This document shows positions 3,132 to 10,973 of a DNA stretch of 64,000 nt, one piece after another. The stretch's first letter is position 1. Each line of letters opens with the position of its first letter. Under the pieces are notes generated by a model, which made no database searches, was not told the DNA's origin, and saw only the letters and a program-made list of their open reading frames with translations. The DNA is taken from positions 14,543-78,542 of the forward strand of contig JBGQEL010000002.1 in assembly GCA_041496385.1 (NCBI GenBank), written 5' to 3'. The DNA comes from Candidatus Methylomirabilia bacterium (lineage in GTDB: Bacteria > Methylomirabilota > Methylomirabilia > Rokubacteriales > CSP1-6). Position numbers and translations under genes: made by a program.

Positions 3132-3995
3132 ATGAGCGACGTGTCTCGGCGCGAGCTGCTGCAGGCCGCGGGGGTGCTCGGCGTGGCGGCCGCCTTCACC
3201 GGCACCGCGATCGCCCAGGGCCGGCCCACGGCGGACGACTTCATCCGCACCGTCAAGGGGGCGAGGATGTTCGACCTCTCGTTCGTCTGGAACGAGCAGT
3301 CGCCCGTCCTCAGCCTGAATCCGCCCTACGCCTTCGCGCTCAACCGCACGCACAAGATGACCCACGAGATCTTCGGCCAGGTCCCGGGGAGTCGCGTCTC
3401 CTGGGCGTCGGCCATGGCCATCATGTACTTCAGCGGCCAGCACGGCGCGCCGACGATCGACGCCAATCTCGGCATGGAGAGCTTCCCCGCGGACCTCATG
3501 GTGAACCGCGCGGTCCTCCTGGATGTCGCGCGCCAGATCGCCGGTGGCCGGCCGGACCCGCTGCCGCCGGGCTTCGAGATCACGGGTGCGCACCTCGAGC
3601 AGACGATGCGGGCGCAGAGCGTGGAGGTGCGGCGCGGCGACTCCCTCCTGATCCGCACCGGGTGGGGCCAGTACTTCGCGAAGGACAACGCCAAGTATCT
3701 CGGCGAGCAGTCGCCCGGGCCGGGTCAGGACGGCGCGCGCTGGATCATCGACAAGGGCGTCCGGCTCGCGGGCGACGACACCGCGACGTTCGAGAAGCGG
3801 CCGGCGGCCTACGGCCGCGAGCTGTTCAGCGTCCACATGATGCTGCTCGCGGACAACGGCATCTACATCGTCGAGAACGCGAACCTCGAGCCGCTCGGCG
3901 ACGCCAAGGCGTACGTCGCCCTCCTGGTCCTGACGCCGCTCCGGATCCAGGGCGCGACGGGCTCGCCGCTCCGCGCGATCGCGCTCGCCCCCTGA
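3132..3995 (+). CDS. Tat-exported cyclase / kynurenine-formamidase-family protein (metal motif looks truncated)
   Basis: SRRELL twin-arginine signal; RAVLLDVA, GDSLLIRTGW, GIYIVEN, PLRIQGATGSPLR. Confidence 0.8.
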   Translation: MSDVSRRELLQAAGVLGVAAAFTGTAIAQGRPTADDFIRTVKGARMFDLSFVWNEQSPVLSLNPPYAFALNRTHKMTHEIFGQVPGSRVSWASAMAIMYFSGQHGAPTIDANLGMESFPADLMVNRAVLLDVARQIAGGRPDPLPPGFEITGAHLEQTMRAQSVEVRRGDSLLIRTGWGQYFAKDNAKYLGEQSPGPGQDGARWIIDKGVRLAGDDTATFEKRPAAYGRELFSVHMMLLADNGIYIVENANLEPLGDAKAYVALLVLTPLRIQGATGSPLRAIALAP

Positions 3996-4020
3996 GGCGG
4001 CGCGACCGCGCGGCGCTCCG

Positions 4021-4653
4021 TCAGCGCGGCTGGGGGGTGAGGCGGAGGTACGGCTTGAGGGCGCGCCAGCCCTTGGGGAACTTCGCCTTCGCCTCCTCGT
4101 CGCTCACCGCGGGCACGATGATGACGTCCTCGCCCTGCTTCCAGTTGACGGGCGTCGCGACCCGGTGGGCGTCGGTCAGCTGGAGCGAGTCGATCACGCG
4201 CAGGATCTCGTCGAAGTTCCGCCCGGTCGTCTGCGGATAGGTGATCATCAGGCGGATCTTCTTCTTGGGATCGATGACGAACACGGTGCGCACCGTGTAG
4301 ACCTCGTCGTGCGCCGGGTGGATCATGCCGTACAGGCCCGCCACCTTCTTCTCCGGATCCGCGACGATCGGGAAGTTCGGCGCGTGGCCCTGCGTCTCCT
4401 TGATGTCAAGCGCCCAGGCGCGGTGCGAGTCCACGGGGTCGATCGAGAGGCCGATCGCTTTCACATTCCGCTTGTCGAACTCCGGCTTGAGCCGCGCGAC
4501 GTAGCCGAGCTCCGTCGTGCAGACGGGCGTGAAGTCGCGCGGGTGCGAGAAGAGGACGGCCCAGCCGCCGGCGAGCCACTGGTGGAAGCGGATCGGGCCT
4601 TCCGTGCTGTCGGCGCTGAAGTCCGGGGCGAGATCTCCGAGTCTGAGGCTCAT
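4021..4653 (-). CDS. 1-Cys peroxiredoxin (Prx6 subfamily)
   Basis: MSLRLGDLAPDF; FSHPRDFTPVCTTELG; GRNFDEILRVIDSLQ; ATPVNWK. Confidence 0.95.
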   Translation of the reverse strand: MSLRLGDLAPDFSADSTEGPIRFHQWLAGGWAVLFSHPRDFTPVCTTELGYVARLKPEFDKRNVKAIGLSIDPVDSHRAWALDIKETQGHAPNFPIVADPEKKVAGLYGMIHPAHDEVYTVRTVFVIDPKKKIRLMITYPQTTGRNFDEILRVIDSLQLTDAHRVATPVNWKQGEDVIIVPAVSDEEAKAKFPKGWRALKPYLRLTPQPR

Positions 4654-5624
4654 CGATGGTCTCCTTTCGTCGTTGCGACCCTGACGATGTAGTCCACGAA
4701 GGGCGGGAACGGATCGAATCCGAGCACGCGCGGCGCGTCGGCGACGAAGTTCGACGTCGCGTTGACGTCGTAGAAGTACGCGAGGCCGTCGGCCTCGCTC
4801 ACCAGGTACTCGATGCCGCCGACGTCGATGGATGCCGCGTGCGCGAGGGCGAGCACCTGCGCAACGACCTCGGCCGGGGCGTCGTACCGGCTGACGCTGA
4901 GCCCCGGTCTCGCGTCCACCGGGCAGGCGTTGAGCTCCGCGGCGGCGGCCGTAGCCGGCGCCTGGCAGATGTCCGCCGGGCAGAGGTTGAAGTCGGCGGC
5001 GGTCCGCACGATGCGGATGGCGTACAGGTAGCGACCGTCCAGCACCTCGACACGGACGATCGCGCCGTCCACAGGCTCGATGTACTCCTGGAGCAGGGCG
5101 ACGCCGTCCGGGCCGAAGTCGAGTGCGGCCGCGCGCGCCTCGAGCCCGGCGCGCGAGTCGAAACGCTCGATGAGCGCGCCCGAGCCGCCGACGTTCGGCT
5201 TGACGACCGCCGGGAACCGAACGCCCTCGCTCGCCTTGGCGAGCTGCTCCCGGTCGTTGACGACGAGCGTTCGCGGGTAGCGCACGCGCAGCCGCTCGAA
5301 CAGGCCGATCTGCAGCGCTTTGGACTTCTCGAAGCGCCAGGCCGCCACCGGGTTGATCACGGGGACGTCGAGCGCCTCCCAGTGGGCGAGCAGCGGCTCG
5401 GCGTAGAACAGCACGCTGCCGTGGCCGCGCCGGTGGGACGACGGGCTCGTCCGGTTGACGATGACGGAGTAGCGCGGGCTCCTCTCCCGCGGATCGAACG
5501 CGTGGCTCGAGTGGTCGATCTTCTCGAACGGCAGCCTGCGGTGCTGGAGCTCGGCGATCAGCCGCGCCGACCACTCGGGGTGCTCGTCGAGGACGCCGAT
5601 CGGTGCCGAGAGAGGCGTGGTCAT
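4650..5624 (-). CDS. ATP-grasp ligase (RimK/glutathione-synthetase-like fold)
   Basis: MTTPLSAPIG start, ATGA overlaps on both sides; VVKPNVGGSG, LLQEYI, GGIEYL, YDVNATSNF. Confidence 0.8.
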   Translation of the reverse strand: MTTPLSAPIGVLDEHPEWSARLIAELQHRRLPFEKIDHSSHAFDPRERSPRYSVIVNRTSPSSHRRGHGSVLFYAEPLLAHWEALDVPVINPVAAWRFEKSKALQIGLFERLRVRYPRTLVVNDREQLAKASEGVRFPAVVKPNVGGSGALIERFDSRAGLEARAAALDFGPDGVALLQEYIEPVDGAIVRVEVLDGRYLYAIRIVRTAADFNLCPADICQAPATAAAAELNACPVDARPGLSVSRYDAPAEVVAQVLALAHAASIDVGGIEYLVSEADGLAYFYDVNATSNFVADAPRVLGFDPFPPFVDYIVRVATTKGDHR

Positions 5625-7027: not shown

Positions 7028-8725
7028 TCAGCCGTCCACACCGTGCGGCGCGCTCCCCGGCGAGGCGTCGCGCGCGACCGACTCGACCAGCGTGCCCGCC
7101 AGCAGCGCGCGCAGCTCATCCTCGCTGTGACGCGCGGCAAACGGCCTGAAGTTCTCGCCCGGGAACCGGTCCAGGAGATAGGCGCGGAGCAGGCGCTCGA
7201 TCGCCGGCGCGACCTCCGTCGCCGGCACGCGCAGCCCGATAGGCCGCGCCACGGCCTGGTGCAGGCCGAGAGCGCCGCCGACGCAGAAGTAGTAGGCGTC
7301 CACGAGCGCGCCGTCCACCTTCGCCTTCTTGCCCTCGATGCCGAGGTCGGCGATCCAGTGCTGGCCGCAGCTGTTCGGGCACCCGGTGACGTGGATCTTC
7401 AGGTGCTGCTCGAACCCTGGCAGCCGCGCCTCGAGCGCCTCGACGAGGCGCCGCGCGAAGCCCTTGGTCTCGGTGAGCGCGAGCTTGCAGAACTCCGAGC
7501 CCGTGCAGGCCACGGTGCCGCGCCGGAAGGGCGAGGCCTCCAGCGGGAGCCCGGCCGCCTCGAGCGCCTGCGCGAGCGCGCCGCCATGCTCGCGTCGGAC
7601 GTTCGGGATGAGGAGATTCTGCAAGTGCGTCGTGCGGATCTCGCCGGAGCCGAAGCGGTCGGCGAGGTCGGCGACCGCGCGCATGGCGGCCGGCGCGAGC
7701 CGCCCGCGCAGGACTGCGACGCCGGCGTAGACATAGCCCGGCTGCTTCTGCGGGTGGATTCCGACGTGATCGCGGTACACGTCGTCCGGCGGATCGTCCG
7801 GCACGCCCGGCTCGAGGGCCACGCCGAGCCGTTCCTCGATCGCGGCCTGGAAGCGCGCCGCCGTCCAGCCGTGCTGCAGGAAGAGGAACTTGAGCCGCGC
7901 CTTCTCGCGGTTCTGGCGTAGCACGTCGGAGTCGCGGAAGATCTCCGAGCTCGCGCGCAGGACCGGCAGGGCCTGGTGCCAGGGCACGAAGGCGTCGAGC
8001 CGCAGTGCCAGGTGCGGGTCGGTGGAGAGACCGCCGCCCACGCGCACGGCGAACCCGATCTCACCCGTCGCCGGGTGGCGCTGCGCCGTGAGCCCGACGT
8101 CGTTGATCTCCGGATAGGAGCACCACGCGCGGCAACCGGTGATCGTCACCTTGTACTTGCGCGGGAGGTTGTAGAAGGCGGGATTGCCGTTGAGCATCCG
8201 CGTCGCCGCGTGCACGAGCGGCGAGGCGTCGACCAGCTCGTCCCTGTCCGCGCCGGCGAGTGGGCAGCCCGTGACGTTGCGCGTGACGTCGCCGCACGAG
8301 CCGAGCGTCGTGACGCCGTTGAGCCAGAGCGTCTGGAACACCTCCGGGAGGCTTTCAAGGGCCACCCAGTGGAGCTGGATGTTCTGGCGCACGGTGACGT
8401 CGGCGACGCCGCGCGCGTGGCGCTCGGCGAGGTCGGCGATCGTCCGCAGCTGATGCGACTGGAGCGCGCCGTTCGGGATCCGGATGCGCACCATGAAGTG
8501 GCGCGTGGCCTTGCCCTCGCCGCCCTTGCCGCCGACGGCGCCGACGCCGTCACCCTGCGTGTAGATGCCCCACCAGCGGAAGTACGTCCCGATCCACTCC
8601 GGCGGGATCGCCTCCCATCCCTCGCGCGCGAAGCGGACGATCTCGGCGTACGCCTCCCACGGATTCTGCTCACGCTTGAGCCGCTCGACGCGCTGAGCCT
8701 TCGTCTCCTGGACGGCTTCGCTCAC
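7028..8725 (-). CDS. sir: Siroheme/[4Fe-4S] sulfite (or nitrite) reductase, ferredoxin type
   Basis: GTG after GGAGG; FMVRIRIP, TVRQNIQ, NLPRKYK; cluster ligands CTGSEFC and GCPNSC; adjacent siroheme synthesis genes. Confidence 0.88.
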   Translation of the reverse strand: MSEAVQETKAQRVERLKREQNPWEAYAEIVRFAREGWEAIPPEWIGTYFRWWGIYTQGDGVGAVGGKGGEGKATRHFMVRIRIPNGALQSHQLRTIADLAERHARGVADVTVRQNIQLHWVALESLPEVFQTLWLNGVTTLGSCGDVTRNVTGCPLAGADRDELVDASPLVHAATRMLNGNPAFYNLPRKYKVTITGCRAWCSYPEINDVGLTAQRHPATGEIGFAVRVGGGLSTDPHLALRLDAFVPWHQALPVLRASSEIFRDSDVLRQNREKARLKFLFLQHGWTAARFQAAIEERLGVALEPGVPDDPPDDVYRDHVGIHPQKQPGYVYAGVAVLRGRLAPAAMRAVADLADRFGSGEIRTTHLQNLLIPNVRREHGGALAQALEAAGLPLEASPFRRGTVACTGSEFCKLALTETKGFARRLVEALEARLPGFEQHLKIHVTGCPNSCGQHWIADLGIEGKKAKVDGALVDAYYFCVGGALGLHQAVARPIGLRVPATEVAPAIERLLRAYLLDRFPGENFRPFAARHSEDELRALLAGTLVESVARDASPGSAPHGVDG

Positions 8726-8735
8726 CGGTTCCTCC

Positions 8736-8780
8736 AAAGCGAAACCGGGAGGTGGGCGTGTCGCTCGCCCGTCCTCCCGG
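8736..8780 (-). terminator. Intrinsic terminator-like hairpin in the sir leader (candidate attenuator)
   Basis: Minus strand CCGGGAGG-ac-GGGCG-agcgaca-CGCCC-a-CCTCCCGG followed by TTTCGCTTT, then GGAGG and the sir start. Confidence 0.7.
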
Positions 8781-8826
8781 CTCTGGGTCTTCGTTGTCGA
8801 GACTGGCCGTTACGACGGCACCACGG

Positions 8827-8898
8827 TCACCCGATGTACTGACGTAGCGATCTCTCCCGCGCTTTACATCGCACTCGAGCCAACCGCTCCGGCGCCAT
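8827..8898 (-). CDS. Putative leaderless leader peptide MAPERLARVRCKARERSLRQYIG (23 aa)
   Basis: Only 6 nt separate the -10 box from the ATG at 8898; TGA at 8827-8829; single Cys codon; lies upstream of the terminator and the sulfur operon. Confidence 0.65.
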   Translation of the reverse strand: MAPERLARVRCKARERSLRQYIG

Positions 8899-8904
8899 GA
8901 CGGA

Positions 8905-8933
8905 AAACTACTATTCCCTATCGGCATTGTCAA
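8905..8933 (-). promoter_or_regulatory. Sigma70-type promoter of the sir operon
   Basis: TTGACA (8933-8928), 17-nt spacer, TAGTTT (8910-8905), inside an AT-rich patch. Confidence 0.75.
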
Positions 8934-8948
8934 GAATGATTTCGGCCA

Positions 8949-9068: not shown

Positions 9069-10973
9069 ATGGCGAGAAGCATCTACGACGAGACCTACGC
9101 CCGCTCGATGAGGGATCCCGAGGCGTTCTGGGCCGCGGCGGCCGAGGACATCCACTGGGACAGGCGCTGGGACCGCGTCTTCGACGACTCGCGCAAGCCG
9201 TTCTACCGATGGTTCACGGGCGGCCTGCTCAACACCTGCTACAACGCGCTCGACCTGCACGTGGACCGCGGGCGCGGCAAGCAGCGAGCGCTCGTCTACG
9301 ACAGCCCGGTGACCGGCACCGTGAAGACCTTCACCTACCGCGAGCTGCGCGACGAGGTGGCGCGCCTGGCCGGGGCGCTGCGGCGCCAGGGCGTCGGCAA
9401 AGGCGACCGCGTGATCATCTACATGCCGATGGTCCCCGAGGCGGTCATGGCGATGCTCGCGTGCGCGCGCATCGGCGCGATCCACTCGGTGGTCTTCGGC
9501 GGCTTCGCCTCGAACGAGCTCGCCAAGCGCATCGACGACGCGCGGCCGCGGCTGATCCTCTCGGCCTCGTGCGGCATCGAGGTGAACCGCGCCGTGCCCT
9601 ACAAGCCGCTCCTCGATGGCGCGATCGATCTCTCGACGCACAAGCCCGAGCGCTGCGTGATCCTCCAGCGGGCACCCGAGCTCGCCCGTCTCTCGGCCGC
9701 GCGCGACCTGGACTGGGGAGACTTCGTCGCCGGCGCGCCGGCGGCGGAGTGCGTGCCCGTCGCGGCCACCGACCCGCTCTACGTCCTCTACACGTCGGGC
9801 ACGACGGGCGTGCCGAAAGGTGTGGTGCGCGATCACGGCGGCCACGCCGTCGCGCTCAAGTGGTCCATGACGAACGTCTACGGCATCGGCGCCGGCGAGA
9901 CCTACTGGGCCGCGTCGGACATCGGCTGGGTGGTCGGCCACTCGTACATCGTCTACGCGCCGCTCCTCAAGGGCTGCACGACGATTCTCTACGAGGGCAA
10001 ACCCGTCGGGACACCCGACCCCGGCGCCTTCTGGCGGCTCATCGCCCAGCACGGGGTCAGCGCCCTGTTCACCGCCCCCACCTCCTTCCGCGCGATCAAA
10101 AAGGAAGACCCGCAGGGCCACCACATCGCCAGGCACGACCTCCGAAACTTCCGCACGCTCTTCCTCGCGGGCGAGCGCTGCGATCCCGACACGCTCCACT
10201 GGGCCGAGGAGCGCCTCGGCGTGCCGGTCATCGACCACTGGTGGCAGACGGAGACGGGCTGGCCCATCGCCGCCAACTGCGTCGGACTGGGCGCGCTGCC
10301 GGTGAAGGCGGGCTCACCGACGAAAGCGGTGCCCGGCTACGACGTGCGCGTCCTCAGCGAGGAGAACACGGAGATGCCCGCGGGGCAGATCGGCTCGATC
10401 GCCATCCGGCTGCCGCTGCCGCCCGGCTGCCTGCCGACCCTCTGGAACAACGACGCGGGCTACGTGCAGTCCTACCTCGCGAAGCACCCGGGCTACTACC
10501 TCACGGCGGACGCGGGCTACCGGGACGAGGACGGCTACCTCTACATCATGAGCCGCGTGGACGACATCATCAACGTCGCCGGCCACCGGCTCTCGACCGG
10601 CGCCATGGAGGAGGTGCTGGCCGGGCATCCCGACGTGGCCGAGTGCGCGGTCGTGGGCGTCGCCGACGAGATCAAGGGCGAGGTCCCGGTAGGTTTCGTG
10701 GTCACGAAGGCCGGGGTCGAGCGGAGCGAGGCGGACATCGCGGGCGAGCTGGTCCAGCGCGTGCGCGCGCAGATCGGGCCCGTGGCCGCCTTCAAGACCG
10801 CGATCCTCGTGAAGCGGCTGCCCAAGACGCGCTCGGGCAAGATCCTGCGCGGCACCGTGAAACGCATCGCAGACGGCCTGGAATACACGCTGCCCGCGAC
10901 GATCGACGATCCGGCGATTCTCGACGAGATCGCTGAGGCGCTCCGCCAGAAGGGCTACGCGAAGGAGCGCTGA
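9069..10973 (+). CDS. prpE: Propionyl-CoA synthetase
   Basis: MARSIY start after GGAGG; NTCYNALD, YTSGTTGVPKG, DHWWQTETGW, LPKTRSGKILR, PATIDDP. Confidence 0.9.
   Translation: MARSIYDETYARSMRDPEAFWAAAAEDIHWDRRWDRVFDDSRKPFYRWFTGGLLNTCYNALDLHVDRGRGKQRALVYDSPVTGTVKTFTYRELRDEVARLAGALRRQGVGKGDRVIIYMPMVPEAVMAMLACARIGAIHSVVFGGFASNELAKRIDDARPRLILSASCGIEVNRAVPYKPLLDGAIDLSTHKPERCVILQRAPELARLSAARDLDWGDFVAGAPAAECVPVAATDPLYVLYTSGTTGVPKGVVRDHGGHAVALKWSMTNVYGIGAGETYWAASDIGWVVGHSYIVYAPLLKGCTTILYEGKPVGTPDPGAFWRLIAQHGVSALFTAPTSFRAIKKEDPQGHHIARHDLRNFRTLFLAGERCDPDTLHWAEERLGVPVIDHWWQTETGWPIAANCVGLGALPVKAGSPTKAVPGYDVRVLSEENTEMPAGQIGSIAIRLPLPPGCLPTLWNNDAGYVQSYLAKHPGYYLTADAGYRDEDGYLYIMSRVDDIINVAGHRLSTGAMEEVLAGHPDVAECAVVGVADEIKGEVPVGFVVTKAGVERSEADIAGELVQRVRAQIGPVAAFKTAILVKRLPKTRSGKILRGTVKRIADGLEYTLPATIDDPAILDEIAEALRQKGYAKER

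Follow-up and report, generated by a model that had tools for sequence, protein, structure and literature searches.

The window analysed here is a 64,000-nt stretch of a Candidatus Methylomirabilia bacterium genome (contig JBGQEL010000002.1), and our subject within it is the leader region of sir, a minus-strand gene for a 565-aa ferredoxin-type sulfite/nitrite reductase (7028..8735, with the Shine-Dalgarno sequence GGAGG at 8735-8731 and a GTG start at 8725). The sir product matches the Pfam models NIR_SIR (5.8e-48) and NIR_SIR_ferr (1.5e-38) and shows 90% amino-acid identity to its counterpart in G001, a genome of the same genus. Read along the minus strand, the leader opens with a conserved promoter block (8903..8941, recognized both by sequence and by a profile match) that comprises a -35 element TTGACA (8933-8928), a conserved 17-nt spacer, CCGATAGGGAATAG, and a -10 element TAGTTT (8910-8905). 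The ATG of an open reading frame (ORF) of 23 codons plus stop, MAPERLARVRCKARERSLRQYIG (8827..8898), is located at 8898, 6 nt past the -10 element, the distance in most relatives being 6-8 nt, and the frame ends in a TGA at 8829-8827. The sole Cys codon of this ORF, TGT (8866..8868), falls within the 5' arm of a 7-bp stem predicted from the complementarity of CGATGTA (8871-8865) and TACATCG (8838-8832), and the segment CGGGAG is found at 8859-8854. Downstream of the stop codon are two small hairpins, CCGT-CGTA-ACGG (8818-8807) and GTC...GAC (8803-8787), and a pair of degenerate boxes (8779..8808), GGC-CA-GTC (8808-8801) and GAC-CCAGA-GCC (8789-8779). These are followed by a GC-rich terminator hairpin (8745..8780) with stems of 8 and 6 bp, one bulged A and a 7-nt loop, and then by a U-rich tract, TTTCGCTTT (8736..8744), that adjoins the Shine-Dalgarno sequence of sir. 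A covariance model of the boxes and terminator, R1, matches 8737..8810 with 24.4 bits. The fold of the leader RNA (-84.4 kcal/mol, z -2.93) was equalled by 1 of 200 shuffled sequences, and in the minimum-free-energy (MFE) fold the GGAGG lies outside the hairpin at 8780-8745, which is of the terminator type with a U tract. All sequence features listed in an earlier note on this DNA are present on the minus strand where that note placed them, and the search against the Rfam 15 covariance models that it proposed recovered no family in the window leader at E <= 10.

Comparison with related genomes, which are Rokubacteria/Methylomirabilota metagenome-assembled genomes, reveals a cassette arranged in the order conserved promoter, apparently leaderless Cys-containing ORF, two purine-rich boxes and an intrinsic terminator at the ribosome-binding site (RBS) of the next gene. 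The usual ORF of this cassette, of ~57-89 codons, encodes a conserved, basic zinc-ribbon protein with four cysteines (hereafter ZnR), and in some genomes the same slot holds a peptide of 11-26 codons with runs of Cys. The cassette terminator abuts sir, cysH or a gene for a beta-carbonic anhydrase: the downstream gene is mostly sir, the beta-carbonic anhydrase gene is found in one family, and there are single loci at which cysH, a cysG-like gene or a gene for a peroxiredoxin follows. Between the shared promoter block and the shared terminator, a ZnR ORF of 61 aa is present in G001 and an open frame of ~77 aa in G015; in genomes of a second family the ZnR ORF encodes 68 aa and starts 6 nt past the -10 element. 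The loci with the beta-carbonic anhydrase (L010-L021) belong to this second family, and in G062 the cassette precedes a peroxiredoxin gene.

Among 101 related genomes, 38 had R1 matches and 41 had ZnR matches; both were found in 37 (including G024, which like G010 is flagged as unpublished), ZnR alone in 4, R1 alone in one and neither in 59. The match in the sole R1-only genome is a trp attenuator. A ZnR gene lies directly upstream in 36 of the 41 R1 element matches examined, and the co-occurrence of ZnR and the element is mostly physical linkage. Copies before cysH that have no ZnR ORF occur in the ZnR-positive genomes G001, G007 and G136: the G001 cysH leader has the same promoter, boxes and terminator but no ORF whatever, and in G007 and G136 the promoter is followed by MRCSCIGRCPG and by the one-Cys peptide MLHSCPGELPS, respectively. 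A ZnR gene stands immediately 5' of sir with neither boxes nor terminator in G007 and at locus L037. The cassette family is apparently undescribed. The cassette strand of 10 intact loci gave no match to Rfam at E <= 1, and one literature search listed no publication in which Rokubacteria are connected with an element of this kind.

As judged from alignment, the 23-codon ORF of the window is a deletion derivative, or shrunken remnant, of the ZnR leader ORF. Relative to its homologs, the window ORF lacks ~140 nt of the ZnR ORF. Its final 14 codons (RCKA...YIG-stop) align collinearly with the C-terminus of ZnR and end at the identical stop position, and in the gapped alignment with G001 indels of -1, -2 and +3 convert WVEVPLR to RERSLRQ. 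The single Cys codon corresponds by homology to the final Cys of the second ZnR CxxC knuckle. Only RCKA and Y-x-G-stop are left of the ZnR core, and the ZnR profile has no match in the window ORF. No ZnR gene was found elsewhere in the window genome, which is estimated to be 100% complete, the best profile match there having an E value of 0.76 and lying outside this locus. These results bear on the claim of the earlier note that a single Cys and a RERSL-x-QYIG ending mark a distinct class of leader. A lack of peptide conservation in homologous leaders, which that note named as refuting its proposal, is what was observed: the ending occurs in no relative across the ~60 cassette loci checked, and it corresponds to the C-terminus of the four-Cys ZnR protein (RCKAWVEVPLRYVG in G001), scrambled by indels and diverging at about the neutral rate. 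The single Cys, in turn, is what remains of a CxxC knuckle, and one Cys among 23 codons does not amount to an enrichment (P 0.16). That note's reading of the region as a leader survives in its leaderless-type start behind a conserved promoter, its ORF and its conserved terminator abutting the sir RBS.

In comparison with G001, identical bases number 30 of 37 in the promoter, 35 of 45 in the ORF tail (third codon positions of sir are 74% identical), 35 of 46 in the spacer and boxes, 31 of 36 in the terminator hairpin, and 17 of 19 in the U tract and RBS. Four of the five changes in the hairpin are in the loop, leaving the stems identical at 27 of 28 positions (as read from the alignment). Over the last 14 codons, the proportions of nonsynonymous and synonymous differences between the window and G001 are 0.34 (pN) and 0.50 (pS), as against 0.07 and 0.60 for the same codons in two genera with intact ORFs (L002 versus L043). 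Contigs from three DNA sequencing runs carry the reduced leader, with one single-nucleotide polymorphism at 8771 and none in the ORF; these contigs are too similar to bear on selection.

When promoters from 33 relatives were combined into a profile, it had one significant match in the 4.56-Mb window genome, at 8941-8903 (E 1.6e-7), the next matches having E values of 2.3 and 7.8; a wider promoter regulon in this genome was rejected, since the profile matches this locus only. The same block precedes sir in relatives that lack ZnR. The promoter spacer is unusually conserved in ~40 loci and at 8903-8941 of the window, with the form CCGAT-CGA-(C/G)AAT, often as the palindrome TCGATCGA, and its persistence in genomes without ZnR suggests an operator for a DNA-binding regulator.

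In relatives, the boxes lie between the stop codon and the next gene and read AAGGC-GAAA-GUCG (box 1) and AAGAC-GAAA-GCCGAG (box 2), with box 2 continuing into the 5' arm of the hairpin, which is followed by the U tract. All 46 distinct intact copies fit the pattern GGC-loop-GTC ... GAC-loop-GCCG with purine-rich loops, mostly GAAA/GAAA. The window boxes keep the four trinucleotides but not the purine-rich loops, and the loops that they have, CA and CCAGA, are found in none of the 46. With R1, the window scores 24.4 bits (E 0.0025 in a small search) versus 39.3-82.6 bits for 47 intact copies, and it has no match at E <= 0.01 in a whole-genome search. The upper terminator stem covaries: in an alignment that had been fitted to the model, 46 cells changed on both sides of a pair, as opposed to 14.4 +/- 3.0 in shuffled alignments, of which 0 of 500 reached 46. 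When transcripts are cut before the 3' arm of the hairpin, GGC is predicted to pair with GCC and GUC with GAC, occupying the bottom 3 bp of the terminator. A different pairing, of box 1 with the 3' arm of the terminator and the U tract, was rejected as it arises only via the resemblance of the two boxes and shows no compensatory change.

The loss of the cassette can be arranged as a series. The complete form is seen in G001; in the window the ORF is reduced and the boxes are decayed, with the terminator retained; G004 lacks ORF and boxes and retains a short hairpin; and in G002 (of the window's genus), G075, G084, G029 and G010 the conserved promoter stands directly before sir. Thirteen of the 30 ZnR-less loci returned were examined; besides these five and G070, which is described below, a sat coding sequence lies directly upstream in five and another gene in two. 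A 28-codon in-frame deletion form with an intact C-terminus is seen in G078. Broken ZnR genes were also observed: at L050:2490-2640 a frameshifted ORF runs from the original ATG to a TAA directly against box 1, and at L030 and L064 (G057) a premature stop follows after 30 codons. Loss of sulfate-reduction genes was considered as a cause of decay and discarded, as ZnR and the PAPS_reduct domain (PF01507) do not track each other in the 101 genomes (16 with both, 41 with each). Neither PF01507 nor the ATP-sulfurylase domain (PF01747) was matched in the window genome, G000, or in G004; G000 has sir and sirohaem genes in the absence of both domains, as do many relatives, PF01507 being present in 41 of the 101.

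In several ZnR-less genomes the ORF slot is occupied by a peptide of a different kind. G103, G147 and G162, all of one genus, have the same promoter, a recognizable element (R1 scores of 43.6-44.4 bits), the terminator and sir, and ORFs of 19-26 codons with CCC or CCCPGCC replace ZnR, for which no gene was found in these genomes (92%, 92% and 86% complete). G070, which likewise lacks ZnR and has no R1 match, has a 23-codon ORF, MSRSSMESCCKCLRCKAEWLLIA, with the motif CCKCLRC, followed by a terminator and sir. Against a background of 0.74% Cys, five short leaders are enriched in Cys codons with P values of 1.3e-6 to 6.5e-4, as opposed to the P of 0.16 for the window. The attenuator idea of the earlier note gains support to the extent that the architecture belongs to a family in which some leader ORFs are clearly enriched in Cys codons; a separate single-Cys class is not supported. 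A parallel comes from trpE, which in G039, G047 and G049 is preceded by near-leaderless ORFs with 3-6 Trp codons, e.g. MTRSESLWWWRRWWCPEGGRTAPA, and then by terminators with the same GCCGAG...CTCGGC stem base as the cassette (L086:1364-1692; L084, minus strand, ~3931-4003; L117, minus strand). By their sequence organization these look like classical trp attenuators in Rokubacteria. With Trp-run leaders and similar terminators before trpE in the same genomes, the group appears to use classical leader-peptide attenuation as a design of its own. Weak R1 matches upstream of trpE were not counted as cassettes, being trp attenuators that share the terminator stem base, and an R1 match at G021:C286 was set aside because it lies in an apparent coding sequence.

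On balance, we favor the interpretation that the window leader is a weakened, probably vestigial cysteine-leader sensor with a terminator that is still under selection. For the family, we propose a ribosome-mediated cysteine attenuator, in which slow translation of Cys codons would favor read-through of the terminator; this proposal stems from the enrichment of Cys codons, the conserved leaderless starts, the placement of the regulatory codons 2-12 before the stop and the trp parallels. The terminator abuts the RBS and leaves no room for a second promoter, and the sequence thereby directly implies that the downstream gene depends on terminator read-through. The ZnR protein and the boxes may constitute a second, separable layer of control, because canonical boxes are confined to genomes with ZnR, and each copy observed in a genome without it (the window, G103, G147, G162 and G070) has altered boxes. 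In the window genome, deletions have left 23 codons and one Cys, the boxes have decayed and there is no ZnR gene, whereas conservation persists in the promoter, in the ATG at the 5' end and in the stems of the terminator. Most likely, sir is now transcribed from 8898 through a terminator that is still active but leaks in part, and cysteine is sensed weakly if at all.

As to the features themselves, one result speaks against them: a generic consensus scan missed both the promoter and the terminator of the leader, returning only a promoter-like match on the plus strand and no terminator-like site. Several observations weigh against the favored interpretation. The only candidate antiterminator is the pairing of box 1 with box 2, which consists of two 3-bp helices that show no covariation because they are invariant. 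When MFE folds were computed with a ribosome masking the Cys codons or the stop, the terminator persisted in 5 of 5 Cys-run leaders, and no thermodynamic antiterminator emerged. The three genomes with CCC peptides are all of one genus, so that these peptides may have arisen in evolution only once. Translation is not the sole input, since the G001 cysH leader has boxes and terminator and no ORF. Furthermore, the start of transcription, its termination, the direction and signal of control, and any response are points that we infer. Finally, the terminator stems are conserved in the window genome even though it lacks ZnR, and the ORF is open from its 5' ATG to the ancestral stop; together these could mean that the reduced leader still works, and G136 likewise has a one-Cys leader, before cysH.

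It is possible, if rather unlikely, that the reduced ORF is in fact a working attenuator, in which a ribosome pausing at the single Cys codon would favor read-through and the peptide itself would have no special role. Besides the conserved stems and the one-Cys leader of G136, such a possibility draws on the leaderless ATG at a conserved distance from the -10 element, on indels that sum to zero and preserve the frame up to the ancestral stop, and on the identical ORF in the contigs of three runs, although the similarity of those contigs makes them uninformative on selection. The spacing can be argued either way: the Cys codon is 36 nt from the stop, as in ZnR ORFs, and the stop is 18 nt from box 1, within the 12-38 nt of the family, but the Cys codon is 57 nt before box 1 as opposed to 22-32 nt in the five short Cys leaders. 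It also tells against a working attenuator that the other reduced leaders gained Cys runs whereas the window has one unenriched Cys codon, that its boxes have decayed, and that the congener G002 dispenses with the entire leader.

Another alternative, which we regard as improbable, is that ZnR or a ligand controls the terminator in trans through the twin boxes, with translation of the leader being irrelevant; the window would then contain an unregulated partial terminator or an mRNA-stabilizing structure. The restriction of canonical boxes to ZnR-positive genomes (all 46 distinct copies), their alteration or collapse in the five ZnR-less copies mentioned above, the overlap of the boxes with the bottom of the terminator stem, and the basic character of the ZnR core would all fit with such a mechanism. 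The same can be said of the cysH copies with boxes and terminator and no ZnR ORF, of which the G001 copy is ORF-less, and of the distribution across the 101 genomes, where the sole element without ZnR is the trp attenuator. However, this distribution mostly reflects physical linkage, and G103, G147 and G162 retain an R1-detectable element with no ZnR gene found. ZnR also occurs directly before sir without boxes or terminator (L037, G007) and as a fusion to ATP sulfurylase (L046, P0237), no nucleic-acid-binding fold was identified for it in structure searches, and the enrichment of Cys in the short leaders is left unexplained by this model. The two ideas can be combined in a two-input attenuator, which we put forward tentatively: the leader Cys codons would report on cysteinyl-tRNA in cis, the ZnR product would bind the twin GAAA boxes at its own and other sulfur operons, loss of ZnR would be followed by shrinkage of the leader and its conversion into a Cys-run peptide, and the window would be an intermediate stage. 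The proposal of the earlier note, a new class of arrest peptide (single Cys, C-x-x-RERSL-x-QYIG-stop) sensing cysteine or sulfur status, is very improbable, as all that it can call on is that an ORF with a leaderless-type start and a terminator exist here, and it is countered by a tail that is a frameshift-scrambled ZnR C-terminus absent from the relatives examined. In addition, metagenome contigs were scanned twice for exact patterns of the reduced leader, with 0 and 0 matches.

A multiple alignment of ZnR (alignment A1) shows two CxxC motifs in the core RCPxCRxK...NAILxV...AKCPRCKxWVEVPLxY. It is a narrow family: one search recovered 129 clusters, and out of 1.84 billion sequences searched, 125 representatives matched at E <= 1e-3. 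ZnR and 30 distant relatives were without a Pfam or NCBIfam model above cut-off, and in the ESM Atlas its relatives were found only in clusters of 'hypothetical protein'. The core is basic (median isoelectric point 9.7 in 31 sequences) and under purifying selection, with a median dN/dS (ratio of nonsynonymous to synonymous substitution rates) of 0.39 over 158 pairs, the rows L029, L031 and L034, which have one-codon indels, having been dropped. The AF2 model is a beta-rich zinc ribbon with a pLDDT of 81, and structure searches with Foldseek against the PDB (best E 0.25) and VIA-wide (best Z 2.8) retrieved generic zinc ribbons and no nucleic-acid-binding fold. A predicted complex of the sulfite reductase with ZnR scored 0.00, from which no verdict can be drawn. 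At L046 (2363-3847) and in P0237, ZnR forms an in-frame N-terminal extension of ATP sulfurylase; P0237 is 458 aa long, is 74% identical in its ZnR part and contains PUA_2 and ATP-sulfurylase domains, and a weak box-like element lies 3' of the L046 fusion gene. For annotation, ZnR can be treated as an unnamed family of small proteins associated with the genes sir, cysH and sat and with those for beta-carbonic anhydrases.

In classical trp/his attenuators, the regulatory codons of a leader ORF lie ~7-12 codons ahead of its stop, and a terminator stands immediately 5' of the first structural gene. The cassette shares with them the leader ORF, the regulatory codons before the stop and the intrinsic terminator before the first gene; it differs in that no stable antiterminator is demonstrable, that most cassette ORFs encode a conserved folded protein and that the window lacks a run of regulatory codons. 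In systems of the HutP/PyrR type, the gene for an RNA-binding regulator lies 5' of the terminator under its control. A comparable arrangement may be present here, with the gene for a small basic protein standing first, conserved RNA boxes overlapping the terminator and extra box-terminator copies before other operons of the same genome. In contrast to those systems, however, ZnR is only a putative RNA-binding protein with no detectable relation to these families, and ZnR-less genomes keep the terminator. A possible resemblance to phage Mu Com is noted as well.

A small four-Cys protein tied to a sulfite-reductase operon has a precedent in CysX of Corynebacterium glutamicum (Rueckert et al. 2005, PMC1266029), which, in the portion of that report drawn on here, has 82 aa and four conserved Cys, lies between cysI and cysH and is a proposed ferredoxin-like electron carrier of unproven function. 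ZnR differs from it in position, and no sequence relation to ZnR emerged in any search, none of which compared the two directly. The closest known system is that of the polycysteine leaderless small ORFs of mycobacteria (Canestrari et al. 2020, 10.1101/834739); according to the sections of that paper used here, the Shine-Dalgarno sequence of the next gene is buried in a duplex until a stalled ribosome opens it, the mechanism being translational and proven, and two or more consecutive Cys codons are required. As in mycobacteria, cysteine or sulfur genes are preceded by a first cistron that is a Cys-codon ORF, here apparently leaderless, and Cys pausing is the proposed sensor, and G103, G147, G162 and G070 have at least two consecutive Cys codons. 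In contrast to what those sections describe, the cassette belongs to another phylum and has a GC-rich hairpin and U tract at the RBS, its commonest ORF is the conserved four-Cys ZnR with non-consecutive Cys, and the window has only one Cys. Predicted leaders with Cys runs before cys/cbs operons of Actinobacteria (Seliverstov et al. 2005, PMC1262725) are similar in being short ORFs with Cys runs near the stop ahead of cysteine genes; in the part of that study considered here they come with no terminator hairpins, Rho being suggested, as opposed to the covarying terminator of the cassette. So far as these portions of the literature extend, cysteine-sensing leader ORFs have been shown only in mycobacteria, acting on translation, and earlier comparative work had found Cys runs without terminators. 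If our proposal is true, the cassette, with its leaderless Cys ORF and covarying intrinsic terminator in an uncultured phylum, would be the missing 'classical' cysteine attenuator. Moreover, a single slot that holds a ZnR gene, reduced ORFs, Cys-run peptides or nothing at all offers a natural experiment on the origin and decay of leader peptides. The window copy itself is only a decayed example of modest interest, and it is the family that stands out as an apparently undescribed variant of Cys-leader attenuators.

With respect to gene neighborhoods, the window has on the same strand 3' of sir a sirohaem-synthase-like gene, a uroporphyrinogen methylase and, further on, a peroxiredoxin domain; such a domain ends the sir cluster both in the window (4021-5574) and in G007. 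An acetyl-CoA-synthetase-like gene that is divergent from sir starts at 9069. At L130, L131, L134, L136 and L141 (G064, G013, G068, G026 and G036), sat runs directly into sir in open frames of 966-1031 aa, which suggests Sat-Sir fusions or tightly coupled genes. Elsewhere in the window, another minus-strand hairpin, at 922-961, has the GCCGAG...CTCGGC stem base and a partial R1 match of 14 bits, and this stem base seems to be a common form of terminator in the lineage.

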